DNA of 63,706 nucleotides, the filler included, from Conidiobolus incongruus B7586 (Eukaryota), in assembly GCA_000697335.1 (NCBI GenBank). It is 8 parts of 8 records of this genome, joined end to end, with 100 filler letters (N's around TTAATTAATTAA, not from the genome) between each part and the next. Parts side by side here need not be neighbours in the genome. Positions count along the whole stretch, not along the records: positions 11,805 to 16,918 come from JNEM01006055.1; 7 more parts are not named here. One strand, 5' to 3'. The first letter of the stretch is position 1, and each line of letters starts with the position of its first letter. Of the stretch, positions 11,805-55,838 are shown piece after piece. Position numbers and translations under genes: made by a program. Under the pieces are notes generated by a model, which ran no database searches, was not told the DNA's origin, and worked only from the letters and a program-made list of their open reading frames with translations.

Positions 11805-11887
11805 TTAAAATAGAAATAATATTGGTTTAGCTATCAAACTGGAAGAGATGATTAATTTTGAAATACAACATTATTTCTCCCCCTTTT
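11805..11887 (-). repeat. Polypurine tract (11874-11887) and first 66 bp of the 3' LTR (11805-11870)
   Basis: Minus strand reads AAAAGGGGGAGAAA-TAA-TGTTGTATTTC... just after the integrase. This LTR start differs from family A. Confidence 0.8.
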
Positions 11888-11950
11888 AAACTGATGCAGT
11901 CCTCTATCAGTTATATTCATGTCGCACTATGTTATTCTTACGATATCGTT

Positions 11951-14644
11951 TTAATCGATTTTGATGTATTCCTTCCATAACAATATGCAATTTTCATGAA
12001 CTATATCATATGTAGCATTTGATCTTACTAATAAAACAATATAAGGTCCATCATATTTCTGATGCATTTTCTTTCTTCCTTTTGTATTTAGCAACCTAAC
12101 ATAATTACCAATTTTGTATTTCGGCTTAATAATTTCATCACCTTCTTGTAATTGTAATTCCTTGAACACTCGATTCTCCCTATATTCCCATTGATTAATA
12201 TAGCGTTCTAATTCTGATATAGGTTTGATCCATGTATCATCCAGAATCAAGGTACTCTCCAATAATCGTGGTTCTTGTCCGAATAATATTTCGAAAGGCG
12301 ATATTCGATCCGACTGTGGCGTCACTCGGTATGCAAACAATACTTTATTAATTTCTTGGTCCCAATCCTTTGGATGGTCAATTGATAATTTTTCTAAATG
12401 TTCACATAATGTCCTATTAAATCTCTCTACTCTCCCATTAGCCTGAGGATGGTATGCTGACGTAAATCGATGTTCTACTTGAAGTATCTTGACGAGTTTT
12501 CTCATAATATCACAATTGAATTGAGGACCTCTATCAGTTGTAATGATTTTTGGAAGTCCAAAATTTAAAATAATATGGGTGTAAATAAATTCAGCAACTA
12601 TCTCTGCAGTTTGTGCTTTATATGGTACAGCTATTGGCCAACGAGATTGGTATTCTGTTGCAACCAGTATATATTGATTACCATAAGTTGAAGGTTCAAA
12701 CGGTCCTACAAAGTCCAATGCAATTTGTTTAAATAATTCGTTACTTACTATATGTCTAGAAGGTACTTTTTCTATAGTTTTATCAAACATTTGGCATGTA
12801 TGACACTTAGCGATAATTTCTCGAACTGTCTTATTAATTTTTGGCCACCAAAAATATTTCTGAATTAGACTTAATGTAGCTGTAATACCACAATGAGCTC
12901 CATTTGTATGGAATATTTCGGTTAATTCTTCTCGATATTGTTGTTTTGGGATTATTTGTATCCGTTCTCCTGCTTTTCTAGTTAAGTTATCATTACGAAT
13001 TGAATATCTTTTGCACTGATTCCGAAATTGTAGAAAGGTTTTGTATGATGGAAACTTTGGTGGTTTACCATATTTCAGCGTCCGGTATATCTTTAGTAAA
13101 TAAGGTTCATAATCTATTTCAGTAAAATTTTCAACCATTGCTGCGGTTTCAACCAATTGTCTACTTAATACATCTGCTGGTATGTTATCCTTTCCTGGTT
13201 TATATTCTACTTCAAAATCATAAAACTGTAATTTATATAACCAACGAGCATGTTGATCTATTGGATTTGTTGCCTTGAGGTATTTTTTAAGTGGAGCATG
13301 ATCTGTTTGAATTTTGAAATGTCGTCCAAATAAATAAGGTCTGAAATGTTCTACCGCTAAGACAGCTGCGTACGCTTCTTTATGGACAGTCGCGTAATTC
13401 AACTCAGCTTTATTAAATTTCTTGGAATAATAGCTAATAACTGATTCTTTTTTATCTCCTGGATGTAATTGGGTAAGTACAGCACCTACTCCTAGACCCG
13501 AAGCGTCTGTTTGCAAAACAAATTCAAGATCAAAATTTGGTAGTTTGAGAATAGGAGCAGAGATTAGTGCATTACGAAGTTGATGAAAACTCTTTTTAGC
13601 TTGTTCATTAAAATCAAAAGTATCATTAGTTTTAGTTAACTCAGTTAAGGGTTGAGCTATTTTGGAAAAATCTTTAACAAAGCGTCGGTAATAATTAACA
13701 AAGCCTAAGAATGCTCTCACCTCTTTAGCGTCTTTGAGTTCAGACCAATCTTTGATTCGTTGTATCTTAGAGGGATCAGTTTCTAAACCTTTGTTACTAA
13801 TAATGTATCCTAAATAGTTGATTGAATCATATGCAAAGTAACATTTTTTAGGACTAATACATAATTGATGCTTTTCTAATCGTTCTAATACTTTTTGGAT
13901 ATGAATTAAGTGATCTTCTTTGGTACGACTGTAAATTATGATATCGTCTAAGTAAACTAGAACGAAATCATATAAAAATTCCTTCATTATATTATTCATC
14001 ATGGACTGAAATGTTGCTGGTGCGTTCGATAAACCGAAAGGCATGACTTTAAAAGCGAAATGATTAGTGCGTGAACTAAATCCTGTTAATGGAATTGACT
14101 CTGTATCCATTGGTACTTGCCAATAACCTGAGAATAAATCTAATGTAGTAAAAATAGTAGCCCCATTTAAGGAATCAAGCAATTCATCGATTTTAGGTAA
14201 AGGAAAAGCATTCTTGATAGTAAGATTATTTAATTCTCTATAATCAATACATAATCGTATTTTTCCATCCTTTTTAGGAACTAATATAATTCGGAATGTC
14301 CATGGCGAATCTGACTCTTGAATAATACCGTTATCTAGCATAGATTGTAATTCTTCATCTAGCCATTTCAATTTTGCTTGTGGAAGCCGTCCTATTTTCT
14401 GTTTGATAGGGGTTATGTTTTTATCGATCAACTCGATTCGATGAGTGATTGCTGTTGTTTTCCTTACTTTCTTAAGGTCTGTACATAGTATATTTGGGAA
14501 TTTTGTCAAAAGATTAATAATGGATTCTTTATCAATAAGAGTTCCGATATTAATTAAATCTACTTTGTTATCGATTGGAGGAGCAATTTCAGTTAAAGCA
14601 GCTGACTCAAGTCGTTGAATTGTGGGGTGTTTAAATTTTTTTTT
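11951..14644 (-). CDS. pol: Pol: reverse transcriptase, RNase H, integrase (frame open from 14644; true C-terminus probably continues in another frame to ~11910)
   Basis: RLCIDYRELN, MPFGLSNAPATFQ, YLDD, LQTDASG, H..GAH...C..C, ALDFVGP/TTDRGPQF/GRVERFN, GPY. The shifted frame ends GIHQNRLKRYR. Confidence 0.95.
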   Translation of the reverse strand, partial: KKKFKHPTIQRLESAALTEIAPPIDNKVDLINIGTLIDKESIINLLTKFPNILCTDLKKVRKTTAITHRIELIDKNITPIKQKIGRLPQAKLKWLDEELQSMLDNGIIQESDSPWTFRIILVPKKDGKIRLCIDYRELNNLTIKNAFPLPKIDELLDSLNGATIFTTLDLFSGYWQVPMDTESIPLTGFSSRTNHFAFKVMPFGLSNAPATFQSMMNNIMKEFLYDFVLVYLDDIIIYSRTKEDHLIHIQKVLERLEKHQLCISPKKCYFAYDSINYLGYIISNKGLETDPSKIQRIKDWSELKDAKEVRAFLGFVNYYRRFVKDFSKIAQPLTELTKTNDTFDFNEQAKKSFHQLRNALISAPILKLPNFDLEFVLQTDASGLGVGAVLTQLHPGDKKESVISYYSKKFNKAELNYATVHKEAYAAVLAVEHFRPYLFGRHFKIQTDHAPLKKYLKATNPIDQHARWLYKLQFYDFEVEYKPGKDNIPADVLSRQLVETAAMVENFTEIDYEPYLLKIYRTLKYGKPPKFPSYKTFLQFRNQCKRYSIRNDNLTRKAGERIQIIPKQQYREELTEIFHTNGAHCGITATLSLIQKYFWWPKINKTVREIIAKCHTCQMFDKTIEKVPSRHIVSNELFKQIALDFVGPFEPSTYGNQYILVATEYQSRWPIAVPYKAQTAEIVAEFIYTHIILNFGLPKIITTDRGPQFNCDIMRKLVKILQVEHRFTSAYHPQANGRVERFNRTLCEHLEKLSIDHPKDWDQEINKVLFAYRVTPQSDRISPFEILFGQEPRLLESTLILDDTWIKPISELERYINQWEYRENRVFKELQLQEGDEIIKPKYKIGNYVRLLNTKGRKKMHQKYDGPYIVLLVRSNATYDIVHENCILLWKEYIKID

Positions 14645-16918
14645 CTAAGTGGATTCTTAGTCATTGTTTCTATAGTTTCTTCCTTATCACCTTGTTTTAT
14701 CTTCATCATTTGGAAAGGATAATTGACTGTAGCATATGTTTTATCTAACCAATTACGACCAAGAATAATAGGTAAATTAGGGTTATCCATCACTAAGAAT
14801 TTATCTTTTATAATGATTTCTCCTACTTGGATATCAACGTCTCTTATCTCCCCTGTTGTCTTTGTAGTGGCGCCTACAACTGTCAATCGTATACTAGATG
14901 GAATTACTCGTTCCTGTAAATTCACTGCCTCTACAACCTGACTATGCATTATATTGGATTCGCTACCAGAATCAATGAAGGCTGTAACCTTTATTCCATT
15001 TATGTAACAATAAATTAAAGGGCAACCTCTAGGTTCACCAGACCAAGGAGGAACATAATTTGTAGAGCCTAGACCTTGATCCTGCCTTTCTGTAACTGGG
15101 ATCATGGATAAAGGAATTTCAATAATTTTGGGTTGTTCAAATTTTTCACATATCAATTGTGCAACTTTCTCACCTTCTAAAACTAGATGAGGTTTGTTAG
15201 AATTGTTGATGAGAATTATTTTGATCTCGCCAGTGAAGTTTGGATCAATTACTCCTCCGCCAACATCAAGAGCTCTCTTACTTGCTAGTCCTGATCGTGG
15301 AGCAATTCTTAAATAGGTACCTTCTGGAGGTATAGCCACTAATCCTGTCCTAATTACGGCTCTTGAATGTGCTGGTATTGGGACATCTTCTATTGCTGTG
15401 AGATCCATCCCGGCGTCATTTTTAAAATTGAATCTCGGAATGATTGCTTTTGAATCTTTCTTAGCGAATCGAATTTCTGGTGGTTTACATTCTTCTTGAA
15501 GCGCCATAGCTGCTATTTGTTCAACTCGTTCTTCGGTTATTTCTTGTCGTTGATTCGCTAATTTAAATAAGCCAGTACGAATTCTTGGTGACATTTCCAT
15601 CAATTGTATTAAGGGAATATTATATTTCAAATTCAACATATCTTTAAGGACTTCCGTAGCTTCACCCTCAGTTAGATTTGGCTTCCTTTGTGTTTTCCGT
15701 TTCTTTTGAGTTTTCTTTTTGGCTTCTTTCACTAATTTTTCTGCTTGTAAGTCCAAAAATCTATTATAATCTTCTCGAGATATTGAAATATTTCTCGGAA
15801 TTTCCTTTGCTTGTTCTTCAATTTCTTTATCAATCTCTTTAAGGTCCAATTTATTTGAAGTAACTAATGGTATAGCTTCTGGATTAATTGCAGACATTGA
15901 CTTATTATTTAAGTCGCTAAGAGGAATCAATTGTTGGTTGGTTGTGTTTTGATTCGTAGTTGCTGTTCGTGTCTTTGGAAAATTAATTACACCAGAAGAT
16001 CCATCAGGTTTCTCTAATTGATATGGTTGTTTTTCATTTTTTCTTTTTTCTTTGTTAGTAACTTCTTTCTTAGGTCTAGCCATCATAGCTGGTTCAATCC
16101 GCCCTAGTATTTTGCGCATTTCCTCTAATGTTTCCTGTTCATATTTAGGATCCATTTCGTCTTCGTCGTCAGAATCTGAACCACTAGTGTCATATTCAGA
16201 ACTGTCAGATTCTTCGGGATCTGTCTCATTTCTAACTGAAACCATTGCTGGCATTTGACATTGATCAGGATTAATCTCATCATCATCAACTAAAAATGGT
16301 TCTATCTCTTGGCCATCTACCATATTTAATTGTTGGTCATAACTGTGGTCTACTTGTACCATTGTCGCCTGAGAATCTTTAACCATTGTACAGTCACGAT
16401 ATATATGACCTAGTTGACCACAATTATTACATCCTGGCTTAATACCATTACGTCTGTTGTAATTAGTTGTGTTACTATAATTGTGTCTGGTAACTGTTAC
16501 TTGATTTGTATTACTTTTGTAATTACTCAAGTTGTTCTTTTCTTCAGCATTCAAATCCTTTAAATCTCTTCCTTCAGCAAGCCACGCCCATTTTTGTTCA
16601 GTCAAAATTTTCTCTGCTTTGTAAATTTTCTGCTTTAGTTCTTCTAATGACCAATCTACAATACTTTCATGGAAATGGTTCAGAAATAAACGTATGTCTT
16701 TCTTTAGCCCCTTCAGAATAACCATACGAACATCGATAATATTTAGGTTATCAGGATCTCTAAATCTTGCAACCATTCTATCTACAAAGTCACTCGCAGA
16801 TTCATTCGGGCTCATCTTTAATTCATCTATGTTGGAACTCAGATTTCTCTGGTTGTTGAACCTGAATCGTTTAATAAATTCTTGTTCAAATACTTTCCAT
16901 GTTTCGATTTCCATTACA
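14593..16918 (-). CDS. gag: Gag-dUTPase-aspartic protease polyprotein (5' truncated)
   Basis: Retrotransposon gag-like N-terminus, CNNCGQLGHIYRDC knuckle (~16390-16431), five dUTPase motifs (~15060-15480), protease FIDSGS (~14965) and ILGRNWL. Confidence 0.93.
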
Positions 16919-17019
16919 NNNNNNNNNNNNNNNNNNNNNNNNNNNNNNNNNNNNNNNNNNNNTTAATTAATTAANNNNNNNNNNNNNNNNNNNNNNNNNN
17001 NNNNNNNNNNNNNNNNNNG

Positions 17020-18276
17020 TTACTATTTAGTTTAAGCATGATTAAATTAAACAACCAATTTTAAAAAGTTAATTTTTTAATCAAAAAAACTAATATATAT
17101 ATATATATTAAAAATAAATAAACATTTGAATATATGATATATAAAAATAAATATATAATATAAATTTAATAGTTTCTTTTATTATTAATAACTTTTTACT
17201 ATACTTTTAACAAACTTCTAACACTTAAAAAACAGTTTTTTTTATTAAAGACTAAAATTTAATGTTTTACAAACTAATTAAATTTTCCTGTAAAAATTTT
17301 CTTTCCTGTAAGCTAGTTTTTTAATTGCCTAAAGCAATTATAATCACATAAGTTATAATTAAAAGAATATACTAGATATGGTAGTTTTTTCCAGTTATTT
17401 TTAATTAGAAAGTTTTTTACAGCTTTAGATTTATGTATTTTACAATTATCATGCAAAATAATAGGTTTTCTCAAATTATATTGAGAACACTAATTAAAAA
17501 TACTTTTATTGAAAAAAACAAAATATAGTTTACTATTAATTGATTTTCCTTTAGGAACTAAATAAGAATAGCATATACTATTATAATCTATTATAATAAT
17601 TAACATTTGCTTATTAACAAAATACTTATTTAAAGGGATTTGTGGAGGAAGTTGATTTAACTTAATCTAGCATTTTGATTTGTGTTTTGGTAAAGGATTA
17701 TACATAGGGATTTAAGATTCATCAATTATAATTATTTGCTGTAAAAGTTTAAGCTTCTAGTAATATTTCAATAAGTTTTGTTTAGCAATAGCTACTCTAG
17801 CTTTTTTTAAGTTTTAGTTAAATTATAAGGTACCTATTTTATATTTTTATTTATTAATTTTAGTTTAAACTTTAAAATAGATAAAATACTTATAAAACTA
17901 ATATTAAAGTACTTAGATAATTCTCTAACTAAAATAAAAAGGTGTTTTTCAATATATTTTTTTACTCTATTTACAATTGAAAGAGTAATAGTTAAAGTTA
18001 ATCTTTTAGATTTTAGCAGGTTTTGAATAGTTTCTTTCTTAGCTTTAAAGTAATTTACCTAGCAATAAATTGTTAATTTAGATAATACTTTATTACCAAA
18101 AGCTGCTTGTAAATTTTAAATAATTTTAGAGGGTTTATGGTTAAGTTTTACTAATACTAAAATAAAAAACTTTTGATGATTACTATTTAGTTTAAGCATG
18201 ATTAAATTAAACAACCAATTTTAAAAAGTTAATTTTTTAATCAAAAAAACTAATATATATATATATATTAAAAATA
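17020..18276. repeat. Exact 97-bp direct repeat, 17020-17116 = 18180-18276
   Basis: Identical by eye. Covers the mariner start codon and upstream sequence. Confidence 0.9.
17166..18199 (-). pseudogene. Degenerate mariner (DD34D) transposase
   Basis: Manual translation: ATG at 18199, LQAAFGNKVLSKLTIYC*V..FK (HTH), K*VPYNL (WVPHEL-like), IIIDES*I, ILHDNCKIH-34 aa-CDY including LPYLVYSFNYNLCDY (HPPYSPDLAPSDY-like), C-terminal SLLKV**KVINNKRNY*. Confidence 0.85.
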
Positions 18277-18329
18277 TATAATTTCCTATTAACTTTATAT
18301 ATATTTATTTATTTCAAACTAATAATATG

Positions 18330-21300
18330 TTTGAAAAATCAAAAATTAAAAAATTTCCCATTATTTTAAATTTAAAGTAATAATTATTAAGTTAATATTT
18401 GCTGGATTTTTATAATTTGAATAAAAAAATAAGTATGTAAAATTTTTAACAAAGTATTTACAATATAGTTTTATTAACCTAAAAGATATTAAATAAAGAA
18501 AAAATAAGCTTAAATAGTTTTAATCTATTTAATTTATTTTCTTAATAAATACTTCTGAGTATTTAAGTAAATAAGTGATTTATAATTTATAAGTGTTAAG
18601 AAAAAATTGTAGGATAAGAAATATAAGTGATTTTTGATTATTTCTACTAAAGCAAAAAGTTTTTATTTATAAACTAGATATTTTAATTTAACTGGTTTTA
18701 TTTTTCTTAACCAGAATATTATTAGTTTTAAAGTAATATTTATAAGGTTAAATTTAACTTATTCTCTTTTATTTATTATTTTATCTTATAGTTATAAGGT
18801 AAAGTATAAATTAAATTCAAACTAGGTTAACTATCTACTAATTGTAAAAAAATTAAAGTTAGTAAAAATAATAGTAGGTAGTTTTAAATTAAAGATAGAT
18901 AAAGTAAAAACATTAGTAATATAAAAAATTAAAGTATTTATGTAAAAAGTGTATAGTAGGGTTTATTCAAAAAGAGAGTTTTTTTAAGAGATTAGTAAGA
19001 AAAATAATAAGTTTAATAAAAGAATTAATGAAGTTTTTAAAGTAATTTAATAATTTAAATATAAACATAAGTTAATTTTTGTTTATAAGTATAGTAAAAG
19101 CTTTAACACCATTAAGTTTAGTTAAATCAATATTAATTCCTTAAGAGTAAATAATATAACTATAGAAAAAAACAGAAGAGGTACTAAAGATGTATTTTGA
19201 TAATTTTAAAAGTAATTTATATTTTTGAATAATTTATAAAACTTAATTAACATGTTAAATATATTCTTCTTTAGTTTTTAAATAGATTAGGATATTATTA
19301 AACTATATAATAATAAAATTATTAAAAATAAAGTTGAAAAAGGAATTAATAAATTAAATAAAAGTTATAAAGGTATTATATAATCTAAAGTTTATAATAG
19401 TAAATTTATAGTAACTTAAAAGAATATTGAAAATAGTTAAAGGGATAAAATTTTCTTTAATTCTAATGTTATAATATTTATTTTTAATATCTAATTTAGT
19501 AAATATAGTTGATTTAAGTAGTTTATCCTTAATATTATATAGGTTTAGTAATAAAGTTTTATCTTTAATAGTTTTAGAGTTTAAAACAAAATTATCAATA
19601 TATAGTTTTTAACCACCATCAGCTTTTTTTACAAAGAGGATTAAAAATTTTTATAGTAAAGAAAAAGGTTTAATATATTTATTAATAAATAGTTTTTAGA
19701 TTTTTTCTTTTAAAGTTTAATATTATTTAAAAGATAAATAGTAAGTAAATTTTAAATATAATTGTGTATTAAAGAGTAGTTTAATTTTATACTTAATATT
19801 GTGTTTAAAAGGTAATTTATTTATAGATTTAAAAACATTAACAAATTAACTTATTATATTATATAAGAAGTAGTTATTAAATATAACTTTATTGAAATCA
19901 ACAAATAAAGTATTAATAGATAAATAATAAACAAATATATATCTTTATAAATTATTAAGGTTTTTAATTAGTTTTTTATATTGGTTTTTACTTATAATAA
20001 TAGAATTATTTGCCACAATTATAGAGTTAGTGTTAGATAAAGTATTTAATAGTTTTATAGTAGGGTAATGTAGGTTTTTTAAGATTAATTCTACTAATTT
20101 CTTTTAGAATGTAAAAAAAATAGATTTGTAACTTTTTAGGGTAATATTCATAGATATAAAACTATGATATTTAAACTAATTTTAACCTAGTATAAAATTA
20201 TAACTAATGTTACCAACTAAGAATTTAATATATTAGGAATAATTAGGGGGTAATAATAGGTATTTAAATATAGTATTAAATGCTTGTTCTATTAAGTTGT
20301 TAGTATATTTAATTATCAAGTTACTTTTTTAGGTAGGTAAAGATAGCTTTATAACAATAAAAGAAGAGATAATATAACTAAAATAACTAGAATTAATTAA
20401 AACACTAACAAGTGTGTTTATAAAAAAATTAATTAACACAAACAATAGTATGATAGTTAAAGGTAAAAAATCACAAGGTAAATTAATTACTAGAATATTT
20501 CTAGTTTCTAATAGTTTAATTAGTTAGATTTCTCTAGTATATATAATTTAATTTATAGAATCAATAGTTTATTAGAACTTTTGTGGATTAGATTAGAATC
20601 TACTAACTAATTATAAAAAAGGTGATTCTAAAGTTATATTAATATTATTCAAGTTTGATTTATAGTTGGTAAGTTAAAATTATTGAAAATTTAACAGATG
20701 TTGCTTTTTTAAAGGGTATTTATTAACTCTATAGTTAACTTAAGTTTTTTAACAGTAATAACAACCTTTGTTTATTCTTAAGTAGGTTTTAGCTTCTTCA
20801 CTAAAGGTTTTCTCATAAAGTTTTAATGTAATAACATCTATCATTTAAAACTTAAATGAGTTAAAGTAAAGTTTAAAAGATTAATTTTTAAGGTGGGAAA
20901 ATTTAATTATAAAGTAAAAGATATTATCAATTATAATTGCTACATCATAAATATTAGAAAAAAACATATTATTAAAGTGTTTCTTACTAACTAACTAGAG
21001 CTTTATTTAAAAGTTAAGATATTGTAATAGTTTGTAGATTTATTCTTCTTCAATAATATTTAATATGTTTAAACATATCTCATTAAATTTCTCAATTAAT
21101 TAACTTATAAAAGTTTTTTATTTAAGTTAAAAAAGCTTTTCTCTTATTAATTAAACTTAATCTTTTAAGTAATACCTTTCTTTAAGAGCTTTTTCTAATT
21201 GTTTAAAAGTTTATATTTTTGTAGTAAATTATCCTCTTGAAGATTCTTTAGGATTAAACTTGTAATAAGTTAATTACTAAATATAAATAGATTTTTCTAA

Positions 21301-22386: not shown

Positions 22387-25300
22387 TCTATTTTGAAGGA
22401 GGCTGATCGAGTGAGTGAAGAGGCCAAAGTGCCTCAAATTTCAAAAGATCCATTTATTCCTCCTAAGTTTACTAATAATAGAGACAACGACATTGAAAAT
22501 GTGATCAAATCTTTGCAAGATCAAGATCCAAAAAATAAGGCTGATGTTCTCAATTTAATGAACGCTTTCCTAAAGCATCACTACATTGGTCCTGATGGCA
22601 ACTACAATATAAACATATTCCCATTGATCACAGAAGTGATTAATTTGATCACTTCTAGTGACTTTGACTTTAAAAAGAACAAATGTATAGAACAGTTGCA
22701 CTCGGTGATAAACCAACTCAATAAAGAAATGGATACAGTAAGAAAGGCACCTGAGCCACCAAAGCCCTTTTCACCACCAAAAACAACGGGAGATAAGCGG
22801 AAAGATCTTGAAAACCTCAAAGAATCATTGAAAACCGCGAATAGGTTCAATAGACAGGATGCAGTCGATGCTATATCAAAGTATACAATATCTTACTACG
22901 CAAACACGGAGGGCCAAATCCTTTCCTCGGTCTATACCAATTACAACAAACTCATGGAATATGTTGGAAACCCTAGTGTAGACCTGGCAAGCGACAAAGT
23001 GATCAATATAATCAGTGGATTCTTCCGTAAGATGGATGAAGATAAAAAACAAGTCGAGGCGAAGCAACGGGGTAAGTATCAAGCACCTGAATTCATTGGT
23101 ACCAAATCCATTGATCTTCAGAACCTCGTCCTGTCTTTTGGTTCAGTCACTGACAAAAACCAACAAGAACCAGCTGATCAAGTGGTCAAATTTATTATAA
23201 AATATTACGCAGATGAGAATCAATATTTTTCAAAGAGTGTGCTTGATGCTGTGAATCAAATATCCAGTATGATCACTAGTGAGCAGTTTGACTTCAGGGA
23301 TAGAGAGCACATTAAAGCTCTCCAAATTGCCTTATCTGATCTCGATAACCTTTATGAGCAGTCTAAGGTTGCTAAACCATCATGCAAACCATACAAAGCG
23401 CCTGTCATATCGGACGACAGGAAGATCGATCAGGCGAGACTGATGAGATCTTTATCTTCAGTAACAGACTGCAACAAAGACCAAGTACTAGCATTCATCA
23501 AGTTCTTTTTGACCAAGTACTATGCCGAAACAGATAATAGATTTGATCCACAAGTTGAAAAGATTGTTGTTCAACTTTTCAACTTGATTACTCCTGCCAA
23601 CTTCGACTTTACTAACGATGATAACTTGGATCAAATCGAGCGACTTTTGGGAGCATTGGAAACTATTTATAGCAAGTCCAAGCTCGAGAAGAGCACTCCT
23701 TATGCAGCATTCAACCTCACTGGGAAAATATCCTACGACGAGCAGACTTTGCTTTGGTCACTCAACTCAGTAAACGACTTCAACAAGGATCAAGCGATCC
23801 AACAATTCATCAAGTTCATTGATTATTATTTCCAAGATTCCAATAAGAAATTCGAAAAGCCCATTTACGAGCTAGCAGACCAACTCGTCAAGATGCTAAA
23901 CACTCCTGGGTTTAATTTTGCAAGCAGCGCTAGCCAAAACCAGGTGCGAGATATCCTCTTCCAAATGGAAGCCATGCTGCAACAGATACAGGGCCCTGCA
24001 CAGGGTGCCTCGTCGTATAATGCACCAATACTTTCTGGTAACCGTATTCAAGACCAGAGCGCATTTTTGAAATCGCTCTCATCCGTAACTAAGGACAATA
24101 AGCAAGGCGCAATCGCTCATTTGATATCACTCATCAACTATTACTATAGGAGTAGAAATGGTGATGTGACTGGGGAACTGTACGATCTCGCCAATCATCT
24201 GATCAACAAGCTCACATCTCCTAGCTTCAATCCGCAAGACATCGAAGATATCGAAGCAATTCGTCAGATCTTCCGTAATTTGGACGAAGAGCAGGATAAG
24301 CAGCTGAAGAGTGAACCCCAGGGCACTTATCCTGAGCCCACTATCACGCGCAATTATCCCTACGATATCCAGCAAATTTTTTCATCGTTCAAATTTGCAA
24401 ACGTTGCCAACAAAGATCAAGTTATATTATTTCTTCTCAAGTTCATGGACAAGATGTTTGCCAATGCCAATGGCTTCCTGGCCTATCCCCTTGACCAGCT
24501 TGCTGACCAGGTCAACAACATCGTTTCAGCACCCTCTTTTAGCTTTACCAATGAAAATGATCAGAAGTTACTGAGATCAGTCTTAGATCAAATGTATGCT
24601 AAATGGCAGGAAAAGGTTAACAAGCAAACTGGTCCAGCATATAATATCCCCATCTTATCGGGCGACAGATCGAAAGATCTGCAAAGCCTAATCAATTCAT
24701 TCAGCTCAATTAATTCTCACAACAAAGCTCAAGCTATATCCTCGATTATTCTTTTCGTCCAATCCTATTATACAAATCCCAATGGCCGACTTCATTCTCA
24801 ATTGGATAGTATGGTGCAACAATTTGTTAATACCATCAACTCCAACGACTTCGAGTTCAATGACAAAGGAATTGCTATATTAACCGATATGTTGACTCAG
24901 ATCGATATTACTTGGGATAACTTGAGAAAACAAACCAAGTCATTCCAACCTTTTCAAGTTCCCTATCTCACTGGAAACAGGGATGTCGATGTTACTAATC
25001 TATTCAACGCACTGCTTACTGTTACCCCACCAACAAAATTCGAGGGAATCAAGGCTATTATGGACTTTGTCGCAAAATCTATGGGGACGGAAAGGGTTCA
25101 TATAATGAAATATATCTAACTACAGTCAATCAACTCTCCCAGAAACTCTCATCTCCCCAGTTTGATGCAGCTTCACAATCAGGGCAGTCAACCATTCTAA
25201 GCTACTTGAATCAGCTTGAAGAATTGAAGAAGACCTATGAACAACAGATGAAGGAGTTCCAACCTTATGTTGCACCAGATTTCACTGGTAATATGTCCAT

Positions 25301-25901
25301 TGATCAGAAGAATTTGTTTGAATCCTTTTCCATAGTCACCAAATCCAACCAGCCAGGAGCGATCAGTGCGCTTATCAAATATATTCTCAAGTATTACGGA
25401 AATAAATATGGCCAATTTGACTACCCTGTAAATGAGCCCGCATCCAAGCTGATCCAATCTTTAACCAATCCTGAGGTCGATCTCACCAACCCTAGTACCA
25501 TTCAATTTATCACCCAATGCATCGCGGAGATGGATTCCATTTTGGCTAAACTAAACAATCCCATCTACGTCAAATTTGTACCACCTTCCTTAGTTGAAGA
25601 TTTGAATACTAACAATGCATTAGTAATCAGCGCCATTCGACAGATCAATACTAGCAACAAAAAGGATGTATCTGACTTTGTCATCAGCTTCTTGGCCAAG
25701 CATTTCGGTAACACCGATGGTAGCTTCGATAGTCTATTGTATCCATGTATAATCAAACTACTGGATACCATTAATGCGAATGACTTTGACCCCAGTGATC
25801 CTAATAGCGAATTAGAAATAGAAACCACTCTATACGATATCAAAGATATATACGAGAAAAGGATAGCGCATAAAAAACACAAGAATAGCTATAAAAATTA
25901 G
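22387..25901 (+). CDS. Large intronless protein of at least 11 tandem ~100-aa repeats, unknown function; 5' truncated, one 1-nt frameshift at ~25075
   Basis: Repeat heads: FIPPKFTN, FSPPKTTG, YQAPEFIG, YKAPVISD, YAAFNLTG, YNAPILSG, YPEPTITR, YNIPILSG, FQVPYLTG, YVAPDFTG, FVPPSLVE. The 908-aa and 231-aa ORFs join if one base is added at GCAAAATCTAT. Confidence 0.85.
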
Positions 25902-38998: not shown

Positions 38999-39309
38999 TA
39001 ATATAACTTGGGAAAGTTGTGTTTGGATTAGATAGGTAAATGAGAGAGATCTAGGGAGATAAGGGTTTATTGGTTTTAAACAAATAGCTGGGAGTACCCA
39101 GATCGAACTCGTCTCTTGAAAATAGTCCTAATTCAGAGTTTTATTTAGAGTGAATTAGGTAAAGTAGTTTATGAGATTCACCAATGACTTGCATCATCAG
39201 CCAATTAAAAGATAGAGCTGAAGCAGCTGATATGAGAGGGAAGAAATGACTTTTATATTAGGTCAGTGTATGCAAATTTGATATGAGATGAGTCACCTGA
39301 CTCGTAATA
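38999..39309 (-). mobile_element. Solo LTR (family A, copy 2), 311 bp, TSD ATAT
   Basis: Reverse complement aligns to 41184-41494. ATAT at 38995-38998 and 39310-39313. Confidence 0.82.
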
Positions 39310-39630
39310 ATATCAAATATATAATCAATTAATAAATAAATAAATATAATATATATAAATCCTGTTTTTGAATTTCCATATCCTACTTCGAAAATTGAAA
39401 AGTTGAGGTATATTATTAACTTAAAGATATTAGTATATCAAGTGTTGTTCTGTTTATAGTCACATGAATAATCCCAAAATATTTTAATTATAAATTAACA
39501 ATATATAACAAATATGAGAAATGGGATTAAAATTATAATTGAATCAAATTGGTACTTGAAAAAAATTTCTCTTTCTAATATAAATTAAAATAAATTCCAA
39601 GATATAATAAACAGTTCTAAATTATTCACT

Positions 39631-41164
39631 ATGCCACGATTCCCCAATTATAACGAGTATACTCAATATGAGAACCGACTGCTACAATCACGTAATTTTC
39701 AGCTCCAGGAAAAGTTATTCACTAATTTTTTAGTTCGACTGCTGCGCCAGTACCCCAAGTTATGGATTCATATTACCGATATAGAGAGAATTATAGCAAA
39801 AATTCCAAAATTTAGAGATTGGCAAGATGTTGATTTGATGAAATTTTTTCATGACAAACGCTATCCTGAGCATTTCGCCTTTGGATTCATGGATAGTGGA
39901 AATAGTAAGAGCGATTTTGTAGTACAGTTGTTACAGCCTAGTTCTTTTGATTTTGAGGTAAAAACTATGGATTTTAATCATTATATAAAATTTGGAAAAT
40001 TAGATAATATTTGGCAGGTAAATTATTATTTATGAATAATAAATTAATTCAACTAACAAATTAGATTGGCAGACATTTAAATTAAACAATACAGATTATA
40101 TTAGAGCAGAATATGTCAAAAATATAATTCAAGATGTAATTGATCGATCATTTAACAATTATTGCACACTAGAGAGCCATGGAAGCATTCCAATCAGATT
40201 GGGCACGTATGATAGTGATATTGATCTTTTGGTAAGGTTTCATAAAGAAATAAGCATACCCAAGATGGAAAAATTCTTCGCAACGATTAAACCCATTTTA
40301 ACCAATAACGGATTCGAATTCTTGGCAAATTGGAAGAGCGTCATAGGTACTCCTATCATGAAGCTATATCATTACCAATCTGAGTTTAGTATTGATATTG
40401 GTGTTTGGTGTCCCATACTAAGATCGAAAACCAATCTGATAAATGCTTATTGTAAATTAGATCTTGAGATTAGGAAGGCTGTTCAACTGATCAAAATTTG
40501 GGCAAATCGCAGACAACTGGATAACCCCGGTAAAACCCAAGTAGTTAGTTCTTATTGTCATGTCATCATGTTTATTACTTATCTTATAATCATTGAAGCG
40601 GTGCCCAATCTCAGAACCATACATCCTCGAGTCAAATTCTGGTATGGTGATACTATTAATTACAAGCCCATCATTTTTCCCGAAACAAGTGCTGATACCG
40701 ACAACCAGTTGAGTGAGTTTTGCACTATAACACAGGCTGGACACGAGATTTTCCTCCCAGTTTACTTCCACAATCGGTTAACCTTCCAAATAAGTCAAAA
40801 TTGGGATATTCAAAGGGTCATTAAGAGCTACTTCTACTTCATGGGTTTTGTATTTGACTACCGTAATTGGGAGTTGAGCTTATATCATGGTAACGTCATT
40901 AGATCACCTTCATCCATTGATCAAATTGACAATAATACCAAACTGTTGCGCGTCCATCATCCTTTCAACCCCAGTCAGATAGAATCCAAAGCTGCAAAAC
41001 CATGGTGTGTTGATGGGCTTAAGTGGGAATTTATGCGAGGTTTTCACCTACTCCATCGTGGTGACATCAACGAACTATTCCATGAAGCTACACCTCCAAC
41101 CGTTGAGGAAGCAGTGAAATATAATATGTACGCTCACGTAAGACGATGGGAGCATTATTCATAA
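39631..41164 (+). CDS. Cid1/TUTase-family non-canonical RNA nucleotidyltransferase (exons 39631-40017, 40073-41164)
   Basis: HGSIPIRLGTYDSDIDL (hGS...DxD), SIDIG (third Asp), LIKIWANRRQL, SSYCHVIMFITYL, PAP-associated region FYFMGFVFDY...VHHPF. Confidence 0.85.
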
Positions 41165-41183
41165 CAATTTCTTATAAAACTAT

Positions 41184-41494
41184 TGTAACGAGTCAGTTGA
41201 CTCTATTCGACCTAATTATACTTACCTCAACCTAATGTTAAAGTCATTTCCTCCCTCTCATATCAGCTGCTTCAGCTCTATCTTTTAATTGGCCGATGGT
41301 GCAAGTCATTGGAGAATCGCTCAAATCATCTTACCCAATCCACTCTATATTAAACCCTGAATTAGGTCTATTTTCGAGAGACGAGTTCGATCTGGGTACT
41401 CCCAGCTATTTATCTTAAACCAATAAACCCTATATCCATAGATCTCTCCCATTTACCTAAACTAATCTAGATATGGTTTTCCGAAGACATGATA
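41184..41494 (+). mobile_element. Solo LTR (family A, copy 3), 311 bp, TSD CTAT
   Basis: TGTAACG...CATGATA. CTAT at 41180-41183 and 41495-41498. AATAAA at 41422-41427. Confidence 0.87.
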
Positions 41495-50995: not shown

Positions 50996-53900
50996 TTATG
51001 TACTCTCCTTTTCTTTGGAGCTTGAATTCATTGTGACTGACTTATTGATAGCAGCCATGAGTTCATTAAATCTGAGGGGTTTGCTAACGTAGTCATCCAT
51101 GCCAGATGCTATACATTTCTCTCGATCCCCAATCATCGCATGAGCAGTCAAAGCAACAATCGGCGTCCTATGACCAGATTCAGTTCCCATTCTCGAATGT
51201 GCTGTGTCGCTTCAAAACCTCCCATGATTGGCATTTGAACATCCATCAAAATCAAGTCATATTTGTTATTTTTAACTGCCTCAACGGCTAACAATCCGTT
51301 AGAAACGATGGTAGCTTTATGTCCGAATTTTTCGAGGATTCTAACAGCCAATTTCTGATTGACAATATTATCTTCAGCTAGAAGAATGTTCAATGGTGCT
51401 TTCTTGGCTTTGGACGAATCTGAAGGAATAATAGAATAATTCTCCATAGCAGAATAAAGGGCATTGACAAGATCAGGGAATTGAACAGGTTGGTTAATAT
51501 ATGATGAGATCCCAAGCTCAATGGAAACCTTAATCACTAAAGGTGGCATATTAGGGGACATTAAAATAATTGGAACATAACGCAAACTAGAAATTTCTCT
51601 AAGTTTTTCAACTATTTCCAAATCATCTACAATAAGCATATCTGTACGAGGAACTTGGGGAGTTCCTTGAGCGGCAATTACACCTGCTTCTTCCATAGTA
51701 TGGACTACTACATAATGAAGTTGAAGGATTTCAAGCATATGAACTAGATCTGGTATATCATCGGATCGTTTAGTATCAACAACAACTACACCACGAGTTG
51801 AATATGGAGATAAGCGATTCAGGCTTGATCTACAGTAGTATTGGCCAAAGTACATTGGACAGTAAAATAAAATTGAGATCCTTTACCAAAAACACTATGT
51901 ACCCAAAGCTCACCACCCATCAGAACAACAAGTCGCTTAGAAATGGATAAGCCTAAACCTGTACCACCATATTTACGAGTGGTAGAACCATCGGCTTGTT
52001 GGAATGTATCAAAAATCAAATTGAGTTTTCCAGCGTCAATACCAATACCAGTGTCACTAACACAGAACAGCAAAGTGATTTTATCACCATGGATTTCTTT
52101 GGTTTGAGCTGTACAAACCACTCTTCCTTTAGTTGTAAATTTCACAGCATTTCCAATTAAGTTAGTAATCACTTGTCTTAATCTGAGAGGATCACCAATC
52201 AATTGATCGGGTATTGTGCCATCAAGATCATATATGAGATCAAGTTTCTTTTGATTAGCTTTGACTGATAAAGTCTTCAAGACGCCAAAAACAGCTGAGC
52301 GTAAAGAGAATGGGATCTGCTCCATTACTAACTTATTAGCTTCAATCTTAGAAATATCCAAAATATCATCAATAATCGTTAAGAGAGAATTGGCCATGGT
52401 TGATACAATCATAAGATTTTCTCTTTGTTGCCTTGTTAATTCAGTTTCAAGAGTTAAAGCGGTCATACCAATAATACCATTCATTGGAGTTCTAATTTCG
52501 TGAGACATATTGGCCAAGAATTCAGATTTAGCTCTATTAGCCAATTCAGCAGCTTCACGAGCCATTGTATTCTTTTGAATACTTTCTCTCAAAGTATACA
52601 CCATTTGATTAATCTTAGTTTTAAGCGAATCCATTTCACCTGAAGCTTCAACAGTAATAAAGCGAGTAAAATCACCATCAGTAGCAGCAGCAGAAATTTG
52701 TGCAAAAGCCCTGACTTGAGAAGTAAGATTAGCAGCCATAGTATTCACGTTATAGGTAATCTCTTTCCAAGTTCCTGATACATCCTTTACTTGGGCTTGC
52801 ACCCCAAGTTTACCTTCAGTTCCTACCTCTCGAGCAACACGAGTCACTTCAGAAGCAAACATTCTTAATTGGTCAACCATGGTATTGATAGTATTCTTAA
52901 GATCTAAAATTTCGCCTTCAACGTTAACAGTAATCTTCTTAGATAAATCACCAAATGCTACAGCTTTACAAACATTAGCAATATCTCTAACTTGAAGAGT
53001 AAGATTGGAAGCCATCGTATTCACATTGTCAGTTAATTCTTTCCAAGTGCCACCAACGTCTTTCACATATGCTTGTCCACCAAGTTTACCTTCTGTTCCT
53101 ACTTCTCGAGCAACACGAGTTACTTCTGAAGCAAACATACGTAGCTGATCAACCATAGAGTTAACCGTATTCTTTAACTCCAATATTTCTCCTTTAACAT
53201 TCACCGTGATTTTACGAGATAAATCACCACAAGCAACCGCAGTAGTTACTGCAGCAATGGAACGCACTTGACCCGTAAGATTAGCAGCCATAATATTTAC
53301 ATTATCTGTGAGATCTTTCCATGTACCACCAACGTCTTTGACTACAGCCTGACCTCCCAATTTACCTTCGGTTCCGACTTCAAGCGACACACGAGTAACT
53401 TCAGTGGCAAAGGTCTGTAACTGATCCACCATGGTATTTATTGTGTTTTTCAAATCCAGCATTTCACCTTTGACATTAACAGTGATCTTCTTCGAGAGAT
53501 CACCTCGAGCTACTGCTTTACTGACATTCGCAATATCCCTGACCTGGGCAGTCAAATTGGCAGCCATAGTGTTTACATTATCGGTTAATTCTTTCCAAGT
53601 ACCACCGACGTCTTTAACATGAGCTTGAACACCCAATTTACCTTCAGTACCCACTTGAAACGCCACCCTCGTTACTTCTGCAGCAAAAGTCCTAAGTCGG
53701 TCAACCATAGAATTGACGGTTGTTTTTAATAAATGTATCTCTCCCTTTACATCGACCGTAATCTTTTTAGACAAATCACCATCTGCCACAGCTGTGGTAA
53801 CCTCGGCAATTGATCGTACTTGACTTGTGAGATTGGCAGCCATAAGATTTACATTATCTGTAAGATCCTTCCATGTACCTGCTACATCTTTAACAACAGC

Positions 53901-55838
53901 TTGACCTCCGAGTTTTCCTTCTGTTCCTACTTCGAGTGAAACTCTGGTCACTTCAGTAGCAAAGGTCCTCAGTTGATCAACCATCGTATTAATAGTATTC
54001 TTCAAGTCTAAGATTTCACCCTTGACATTGACTGTTATCTTTTTAGAAAGATCTCCAGTTGCAACAGCTTTACTGACATTCGCGATATCCCTCACCTGTG
54101 CTGTAAGATTAGAGGCCATGGTATTTACACTATCTGTCAAAACTTTCCATGTTCCTCCAACTCCGTCGACTTCTGCTTGAGCACCAAGTTTACCTTCTGT
54201 ACCTACTTCATGTGCAACACGAGTAACTTCAGCTGCAAACATTCTTAGTTGGTCAACCATAGTATTAATGGTTACTTTGAGTTCTAGAATTTCACCCTGA
54301 ACAGAAACAGTCACTTTTTGAGAAAGATCACCACAGGCAACAGCTGTACAAACAGTAGCAATATCACGCACTTGAGCAGTCAAATTGGAAGCCATTAAAT
54401 TGACATTATTGGTCAAATCTTTCCAAGTACCACCTACATCTTTGACAATGGCTTGTCCCCCGAGTTTACCCTCGGTTCCTACCTCAAGTGATACACGAGT
54501 TACTTCAGTAGCAAAAGTTTGTAACTGGTCAACCATAGTGTTAATGGTATCTTTAAGGTCACGAATTTCACCTTTGACATCAACAGTGACTTTTTTGGAC
54601 AAATCGCCGCGAGCTACAGCTTTACTAACATCGGCAATATCACGTACTTGAGCAGTAAGATTAGAAGCCATCGTATTTACATTATCTGTTAACAATTTCC
54701 AAGTACCGCCGACACCTTCGACCTGAGCCTGTACACCTAACTTTCCCTCAGTACCGACTTCGTGAGCGACACGCGTAACTTCAGAAGCAAAAGAATTTAA
54801 TTGATCTACCATCGTATTCAGTGTATTCTTCAGGACCAGTGTCTCTCCTTTAACATTAATTGTAATTTTTTTGGTTAAATCTCCGTTAGCTACCGCTGTA
54901 CTGATTTCAGCAATAGCTCTGACTTGCTCTGAATGGTTAGAGGACATTAAATTGACATTGTCAACCATTTGGAGCCAAGCGCCATTTATATTCTCCACAT
55001 TCGCCAATAGGCCCAATTTCCCCTCAGCTCCTGTTTGATGGACAACATGATTGACCTCAGAGGTGAATCGCTCTAACTTGGAAACCATGGTGTTAAGACT
55101 ACGTTTTAAACCAGCCATGTGTCCCTCTGGAACGGGTGTTGTCACTCGTAAAGTCAAATCGCCATTTTCGACAGCTTGTACGACTTGAGTGCATTCACAT
55201 AAGAATTGATTCCATTCCGAAGGAGTATTGAGTGTGGAGTTCAATTTGGTACCCGTCGTGGTATGAAATGAATGGAATGGGTAGCTCTCTGTAGTTTCTG
55301 ATAATGGACATAACTGTTCCTTGGTGTTTGGATTGAAGATTTCTGCATGAAGTGGATTTTCCAATGGACCCGAGTCGGGCGATGATTGGACTAGGGGTGG
55401 AGGCGATCTTCCCAACTAATAATGCATCAAATTAAAGTTAATATCATTCAATGAATATTCAATAGTAGGAGAAAATAGAGAGAATCAGTCAAAAAGTATT
55501 TGATAATAAAAAGTATGACAATATTAATATAATAGCTTATATTGAATATTGGCATCCGGACAAATAGAAAAAAGTATTCTTTATGTGCAAGAGTTTGTTT
55601 TTTGACTAGTAAAAACCCATTGAATAAGGTGAAGTAGACTTATTACCTTCAAGTAGTTGTTTTCAATTTCTAATTCTTTAGTCTTTTGTATTAGTTGAAC
55701 TAGTAAACTATCTATTTGAGCAGTTTGACTATTCGCTTCTTTCCCTTGATAAATAATAGGGAATAGGGGAAAATCTGTTGGAGAATCACATGTATAGTGT
55801 CGCAACACTTGCCCAAGATGCTCGATATAATCAGTCAT
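50996..55838 (-). CDS. NIK1: Group III hybrid histidine kinase (poly-HAMP, HisKA, HATPase, degenerate receiver, intact receiver); intron 55416-55646; two 1-nt frameshifts (~51822, ~51185)
   Basis: Nine 92-aa GTEGKLG-type units, [38 protein letters not shown]...ILMDVQMP...SKP. The three ORFs join by +1 base each. Confidence 0.95.

Follow-up and report, generated by a model that had tools for sequence, protein, structure and literature searches.

The window analysed here (the whole stretch of 63,706 nucleotides, made up of eight contigs joined by 100-base N-spacers) carries, on the minus strand of the contig at 11805–16918, an element that by its sequence is a chromodomain-less LTR retrotransposon of the Ty3/gypsy type, in which a trimeric-type dUTPase domain lies between the CCHC zinc knuckle and the aspartic protease. 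We consider it probable that this is a young element from a fungus likely of entomophthoralean type, likely translated as one polyprotein, and that its dUTPase acts, with reduced efficiency, to keep dUTP low where reverse transcription takes place. The novelty is in the lineage and not in the layout. The element is non-chromoviral, and its only close relative among the matches listed is a JGI metagenome protein (P0025). The undescribed lineage suspected in a first-pass annotation of this DNA is consistent with this result, as no named close relative was recovered among the matches listed in the searches run, and none of the collections covered, which do not include Repbase and GyDB, seems to catalogue it.

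The coding region is divided between two overlapping frames, a stop-free frame of 774 codons (16917–14596) containing a weak Gag match, the CCHC knuckle, the dUTPase, and the aspartic protease, and a second frame of 897 codons containing reverse transcriptase (RT), RNase H, and integrase. All features lie on the minus strand. In coding order, the C-terminal capsid/Gag part (16435–16918; Retrotrans_gag E 0.0073, below cut-off) is truncated by the contig end, past which (16918) one read contig (X1 record 8) extends for 656 nt. It is followed by the CCHC zinc knuckle of the nucleocapsid (16387–16434, motif at 16431–16390; Pfam zf-CCHC E 9.2e-05, above cut-off), a charged spacer of about 300 aa with no Pfam match (15481–16386), the last part of which could be aligned with P0025, the dUTPase domain (15055–15480; Pfam PF00692 E 2.5e-25), and the aspartic protease of DSG type (14731–15015; Pfam Asp_protease E 3.6e-11), with its motif FIDSGSE at 14979–14959. 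An apparent −1 frame change within an A-run containing slippery-looking heptamers (14635–14644) marks the passage from protease to RT. Beyond it lie the RT core (13799–14281, with YLDD at 13954–13943; Pfam RVT_1 E 6.2e-39), RNase H (13220–13609; Pfam RT_RNaseH E 1.7e-32), the integrase zinc-binding domain and core (12377–12946; Pfam Integrase_H2C2 E 7e-17, rve E 1e-10), and, from sequence and Pfam, a C-terminal integrase tail (11907–11993) that is out of frame in the window copy. At 28 aa this tail is too short for a chromodomain, and the ORF ends about 40 nt ahead of the LTR; a Pfam search for a chromodomain gave no match in either the window or P0025.

A polypurine tract (11874–11887) precedes by 3 nt the start of the 3′ LTR (11805–11870), which begins with TG and of which the first 66 nt are present before the contig end cuts it. 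At position 11870, 20 contigs of read run X1 diverge into dissimilar flanks, which fixes the LTR boundary, and the summed read depth there is 14,315 as compared to ∼220–430 inside the element in the same run. The order protease–RT–RNase H–integrase and a TG-starting LTR preceded by a polypurine tract place the element in Ty3/gypsy, the LTR evidence consisting of these 66 nt of the 3′ LTR in a contig that begins inside gag; the 5′ LTR, the primer-binding site, and the target-site duplication lie outside the window. The RT groups with gypsy RTs, its best named matches being Ty3/297-type polyproteins at 40–48% (best 120 of 5163 matches). An initial assignment to a Ty3/gypsy element, likely fungal, agrees with the Pfam domains and with the VPS13 matches described below.

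Each of the five dUTPase motifs that had been reported in frame between the knuckle and the DSG protease was located in the 16917–14596 frame: motif I AGMDL (15414–15400), motif II RSGLA (15297–15283), motif III GVIDPNFTG (15255–15229), motif IV KVAQLI (15168–15151), and motif V RQDQGLGST (15087–15061). The five motifs, motif III including its catalytic Asp, are those of a homotrimeric dUTPase, the PF00692 match spans profile positions 3–128 of 129 (126/129), and the best PDB match of the domain is a dUTPase (E 7e-31). PDB scores of 94–110 bits for cellular-type dUTPases versus 52–58 bits for a lower-scoring group support, by score, a cellular-type rather than retroviral-type domain, in line with the resemblance to cellular DUT noted at the outset; the entries at 52–58 bits we take to be lentiviral dUTPases, and the organisms of the PDB matches are likewise our assumption. 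A single-sequence AlphaFold model had a pLDDT of 31.

Across 171 aligned homologues, the nine near-invariant positions (D26, R62, S63, D79, Q108, R132, G136, G138, and S139 in domain numbering) are all retained, including the motif III Asp common to 166/171 homologues, which is described as positioning the catalytic water (available text of PMC4531489), and the motif IV Gln common to 168/171. At four further motif positions the window has Asn, Phe, Gln, and Leu in place of the prevailing Asp (142 homologues), Tyr (145), Gly (121), and Phe (144); the window residues occur elsewhere in 5, 19, 0, and 8 of the 171, respectively. In 126 homologues every one of the nine strict residues is kept; 76 of these match consensus at all four positions, 38 differ from it at one, 12 at two, and none at more. 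The description of the dUTPase as intact is therefore to be read with caution, given the rare residues at four motif positions. One of these removes the aromatic residue of motif V, Leu standing in the window where 144/171 homologues have Phe. This aromatic stacks on uracil, and its loss in human and mycobacterial enzymes (as Ala mutants, not Leu) is described as lowering kcat ∼20-fold and catalytic efficiency ∼100-fold (PMC2978360, in the part available). With four departures from consensus, the uracil-stacking Phe among them, the enzyme is probably weak, and the domain sequence, together with the branch lengths given below, suggests a dUTPase that is under constraint yet probably slow.

P0025 is a single 1438-aa ORF with dUTPase, protease, RT, RNase H, and integrase in the same order as in the window, and is the one close relative found by RT (about 63–64% identity in RT/RNase H; others 35–48%, among the best 120 of 5163 matches from 7969 scored candidates). 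Identity between the two is 70% in the RT core, 54% in integrase, 46% in protease, and 34% in dUTPase. The P0025 dUTPase is in frame, with motifs II, IV, and V degenerate and 3/9 strict residues left, and its protease motif reads DNG. The dUTPase branch length is 0.30 for the window element versus 1.49 for P0025, while the RT branches are 0.19 and 0.38; a fivefold difference in dUTPase as compared to twofold in RT argues for constraint in the window element and release in P0025. An alternative that we regard as possible but doubtful is that the window domain is a pseudo-dUTPase, or is becoming one, either kept for a non-catalytic role (as a trimer scaffold or spacer in assembly or protease activation) or drifting. 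Such a reading would accommodate the co-occurrence of four rare motif residues, beyond any of the 126 comparable homologues, as well as the P0025 domain remaining in frame at 34% identity despite the loss of motifs II, IV, and V, and it has a precedent in the dUTPase-related protein of BIV, described as inactive (available part of PMC4531489) and, in the title of PMC4261571, as needed for replication. It is opposed by retention of the nine strict residues while RT diverged to 64%, by the short branch, and by the finding that three of the four substitutions each occur singly in other homologues. A constrained, slow enzyme in the window element and a decayed one in P0025 would make the dUTPase an accessory, dispensable module.

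Copies of the element were examined in four public read runs, which contain 85–86% of sampled words. They stem from a single sample and study, which may be those from which the window itself derives, and so are not independent; three further runs (X5–X7) contain almost none of the words. Neither of the window copy's two frame breaks occurs in the dominant read contigs, which carry one extra base at 14635, at the protease/RT frame change (4/4 runs, one sample), and one extra base near 11990, at the second frame change; the common form is therefore most likely a single ORF, and in the window copy the frame change at 14635–14644 probably reflects a lesion or an error in base calling. These observations weigh on a betaretrovirus-like interpretation, in which the dUTPase would remain on the nucleocapsid, tethered to the copied RNA, and expression of pol would depend on programmed −1 frameshifting downstream of the protease. 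The linear order is identical to that of betaretroviruses, in-frame slippery-looking heptamers are present at 14644–14635, and a minor decayed copy with a 3-base insertion at the protease/RT junction preserves the window's frame. However, the extra base held by the dominant contigs at the junction demotes a programmed frameshift, P0025 as well as the dominant contigs reads protease into RT in one frame, and predicted structure past the heptamer is weak (−5 to −10 kcal/mol over 60–100 nt, as calculated with no shuffle control). Moreover, 303 residues separate the knuckle from the dUTPase, as compared to 29 codons from the end of motif V to the protease DSG, and gag and dUTPase are joined without a frameshift. 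We accordingly regard a betaretrovirus-like arrangement as quite unlikely. The nucleocapsid–dUTPase–protease order given by the first-pass annotation stands, but adjacency to the knuckle does not, and the proposed convergence on a betaretroviral nucleocapsid–dUTPase fails on the 303-residue spacer and on the single frame with no gag/pro frameshift. Misassembly, or a one-off insertion of the dUTPase into the window copy, might be suspected of a short, spacer-flanked contig cut at both ends but is extremely improbable, being refuted in effect by a gap-free 1742-nt contig (X1 record 6) that covers knuckle, spacer, dUTPase, and protease motif at even depth across all junctions, such that the sequence is not chimeric, and by P0025, which has its dUTPase at the identical place.

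Differences between copies were analysed from 40 listed of 384 rows, a "best supported" subset, comprising 21 rows for the dominant contig and 17 for the minor copy; two rows were left out, at 14642 (within the junction) and 12964 (close to a contig end). The window and dominant contig are ∼0.4% apart. In RT–RNase H–integrase, 7/10 listed differences between them are synonymous (random expectation 0.21; p 0.001), while in gag and spacer the figure is 2/11. The synonymous excess in pol marks window and dominant contig as genuine copies subject to purifying selection. The dUTPase has no listed difference between the two, an outcome that chance gives with P 0.16 and that is thus uninformative; three other letters differ in X4 record 30, each of them listed at a place not within the dUTPase. 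Depth in X1 is 220–308 for the dominant contigs versus 18–33 for the minor ones, and such ratios would suggest about ten young copies. The family looks young and nearly whole, and the element is unusually well preserved.

Phylogenetic trees placed the window element and P0025 together with strong values (100/100 in the RT tree of 43 rows and 100/92 in the dUTPase tree of 44 rows). RT trees were built with FastTree (113 rows, nine redundant Araneus rows removed) and IQ-TREE (43 chosen rows, bootstrap not fully settled), with no retroviral outgroup and no Ylt1 or SN_1006 reference rows; the dUTPase tree used 44 of 172 rows. In the RT trees, the window element and P0025 stand alone as a pair and fall outside a 13-row chromovirus-like group that includes Wallemia, Tanacetum, Chara, one chromodomain-bearing row, and P0005. 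An RT clade of the window element, P0025, and P0005 was rejected (p-AU 0.0008), and two or more RT backbones therefore carry the dUTPase–protease layout, as a result of either separate captures or module exchange. In the dUTPase trees, P0025 is the only supported partner of the window element and no donor emerges, and a single origin of the six dUTPases in dUTPase–protease order was not rejected (p-AU 0.094). As to an independent capture, separate RT and dUTPase trees (without host DUT1) thus uphold the split from P0005 in RT but leave a single dUTPase origin unrejected.

Other proteins and loci combining these domains were collected. Among 174 fetched dUTPase proteins, 21 also have a protease, with the order dUTPase–protease in five (P0025, P0005, P0155, P0189, and P0239) and protease–dUTPase in 16. 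A HMMER search of 1.84 billion representatives returned, among the best 150, only P0025 and P0155 as spanning dUTPase and protease contiguously. RT–integrase alignment scans found no relatives among 249 pattern matches in viral contigs and none among 173 in metagenome contigs. A DNA scan for dUTPase–protease retained 80/181 loci, of which 4/80 have a gypsy RT, always with the dUTPase after RNase H, and so dUTPase–protease order was seen at 0 of these 4 loci. The metagenome gypsy elements L002, L007, L012, and L027 have the dUTPase directly after RNase H, a lentivirus-like position, and copia-type proteins with a dUTPase were also seen. In the ESM Atlas, where every match scored <0.9 and serves as a lead only, two clusters combine dUTPase with protease families of gypsy type. 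P0136, a gypsy polyprotein that groups with a Rhizophagus row in the RT tree, has a precomputed PF00293 domain, which we take to be NUDIX, and is possibly another nucleotide-cleaning capture.

The host is likely an entomophthoralean-type fungus, judging from a single gene, VPS13, encoded on a neighbouring contig. This gene matches a JGI protein at 92%, followed by Neoconidiobolus thromboides and Massospora cicadina at 58%, with matches in Glomeromycota and Dimargaritales (53–56%) below these. The window also encodes a histidine kinase with eight HAMP repeats of 276-nt period (51822–55415) and a receiver domain in a separate ORF (51151–51882); multi-HAMP kinases of this kind are presumably of fungal type. 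Two further regions were observed. At 39062–41431, inverted repeats of 251 nt (83% complementary) surround a 373-codon ORF (40043–41164; Pfam MTPAP-like_central E 1.8e-08), part of the flanking repeat recurring at 217–270, and the whole is possibly a terminal-inverted-repeat element with a nucleotidyltransferase. At 22387–25901, an ORF of 900+ codons is followed by one of 300 codons, internally repetitive and helical-looking, with no Pfam match.

The differences among copies are biased in kind. In run X1, C>T or G>A changes make up 207/258 difference places, as compared to 25 reverse transitions, and 12/16 listed minor-copy transitions fall at CpA (35% expected; p 0.001), with 3/17 listed minor-copy rows creating stops. 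This CpA-biased C-to-T decay fits a RIP-like process, with methyl-CpG decay contributing to it or perhaps accounting for part of it. The contig at 17019–22286 contains a wrecked gypsy element (RT at 19866–18979, tblastn E 2e-23) with 17% GC and no CpG, and its composite RIP index is positive (+0.5 to +0.9) in five of five 1-kb windows; it begins with a 102-nt direct repeat, 99% identical (17020–17121 and 18180–18281), possibly a fragment of an LTR or else an overlap in the assembly. An Entomophthora paper raises RIP outside Dikarya from dinucleotide indices, flagged there as uncertain, and the accessible part of PMC12543289 contains nothing specific on the zoopagomycete group. CpA-biased decay from copy to copy in a likely zoopagomycete bears on RIP outside Dikarya and may be a better lead than the dUTPase. 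A more far-reaching interpretation, which we hold to be unlikely, is that a deep, uncatalogued, non-chromoviral entomophthoralean lineage acquired a cellular-type dUTPase independently and is converting it to a non-catalytic structural part, weakened in the still mobile family here and dead but in frame in the sister, in a host with RIP-like CpA-to-TpA mutation outside Dikarya.

In the favoured reading of a slow but active dUTPase, and by analogy with retroviral precedent, the order Gag–knuckle–spacer–dUTPase–protease–RT–RNase H–integrase would be translated as one polyprotein and packaged into a particle, where the element's protease would release the dUTPase, with or without a portion of the spacer. 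The enzyme would then trimerise and convert dUTP to dUMP, and through this local removal of dUTP the RT would incorporate less uracil into cDNA. A dUTPase was already there in the common ancestor of the window element and P0025. Because the family looks young and nearly whole, the enzyme is testable, and with P0025 it forms a natural pair of kept and decayed dUTPases that makes the function of a retrotransposon dUTPase directly testable.

No description of a dUTPase–protease element in Zoopagomycota was found in the literature searched, with most subscription journals outside its scope; an Entomophthora muscae preprint reports, in the part available, enrichment of dUTPase, retroviral protease, and zf-CCHC domains in the proteome, which may reflect similar elements. 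A layout proposed as new has a precedent in PosPlaTy3-3 of Postia placenta, whose Pol is described as having the dUTPase at its amino terminus (Novikova et al. 2010, PMC2864245), and the same order was found in 5/21 proteins with both dUTPase and protease. The accessible text of that paper places the dUTPase at the carboxyl terminus in PosPlaTy3-4 and between protease and RT in PosPlaTy3-5, and leaves the role and origin of these dUTPases open (PMC2864245). Compared by description, PosPlaTy3-3 resembles the window element as a fungal Ty3/gypsy element with dUTPase ahead of protease but differs in that the dUTPase elements of that paper are termed chromodomain-containing (PMC2864245), whereas the window element has no chromodomain, and in that its host is a basidiomycete as opposed to a likely zoopagomycete. 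PosPlaTy3-4 and -5, Phanerochaete elements, Tuber Tmt1, and bdelloid Juno, Vesta, and TelKA are likewise Ty3/gypsy elements with a dUTPase (available text of PMC2864245 and PMC5408684). As described there, the dUTPase lies between protease and RT or ends Pol in PosPlaTy3-4 and -5, Tmt1, and Juno, Vesta, and TelKA, unlike in the window, the rotifer elements having it between protease and RT (PMC5408684). A vertebrate metavirus with a dUTPase is mentioned in PMC11011659, and the betaretroviral dUTPase has been likened to that of fungal chromoviruses (PMC2774666), each as seen in the accessible part of the source. In betaretroviruses (MMTV p30, MPMV) the dUTPase is described as a trans-frame gag/pro protein fused to nucleocapsid, and the linear order nucleocapsid, dUTPase, protease is shared with the window element (PMC4531489, part available). 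Unlike betaretroviruses, the window element has these domains in one frame, the 303-residue spacer, no env, and a gypsy-type RT–RNase H–integrase. P0025 is alike as a sister lineage with the same domain order and unlike in its degenerate dUTPase motifs and DNG protease.
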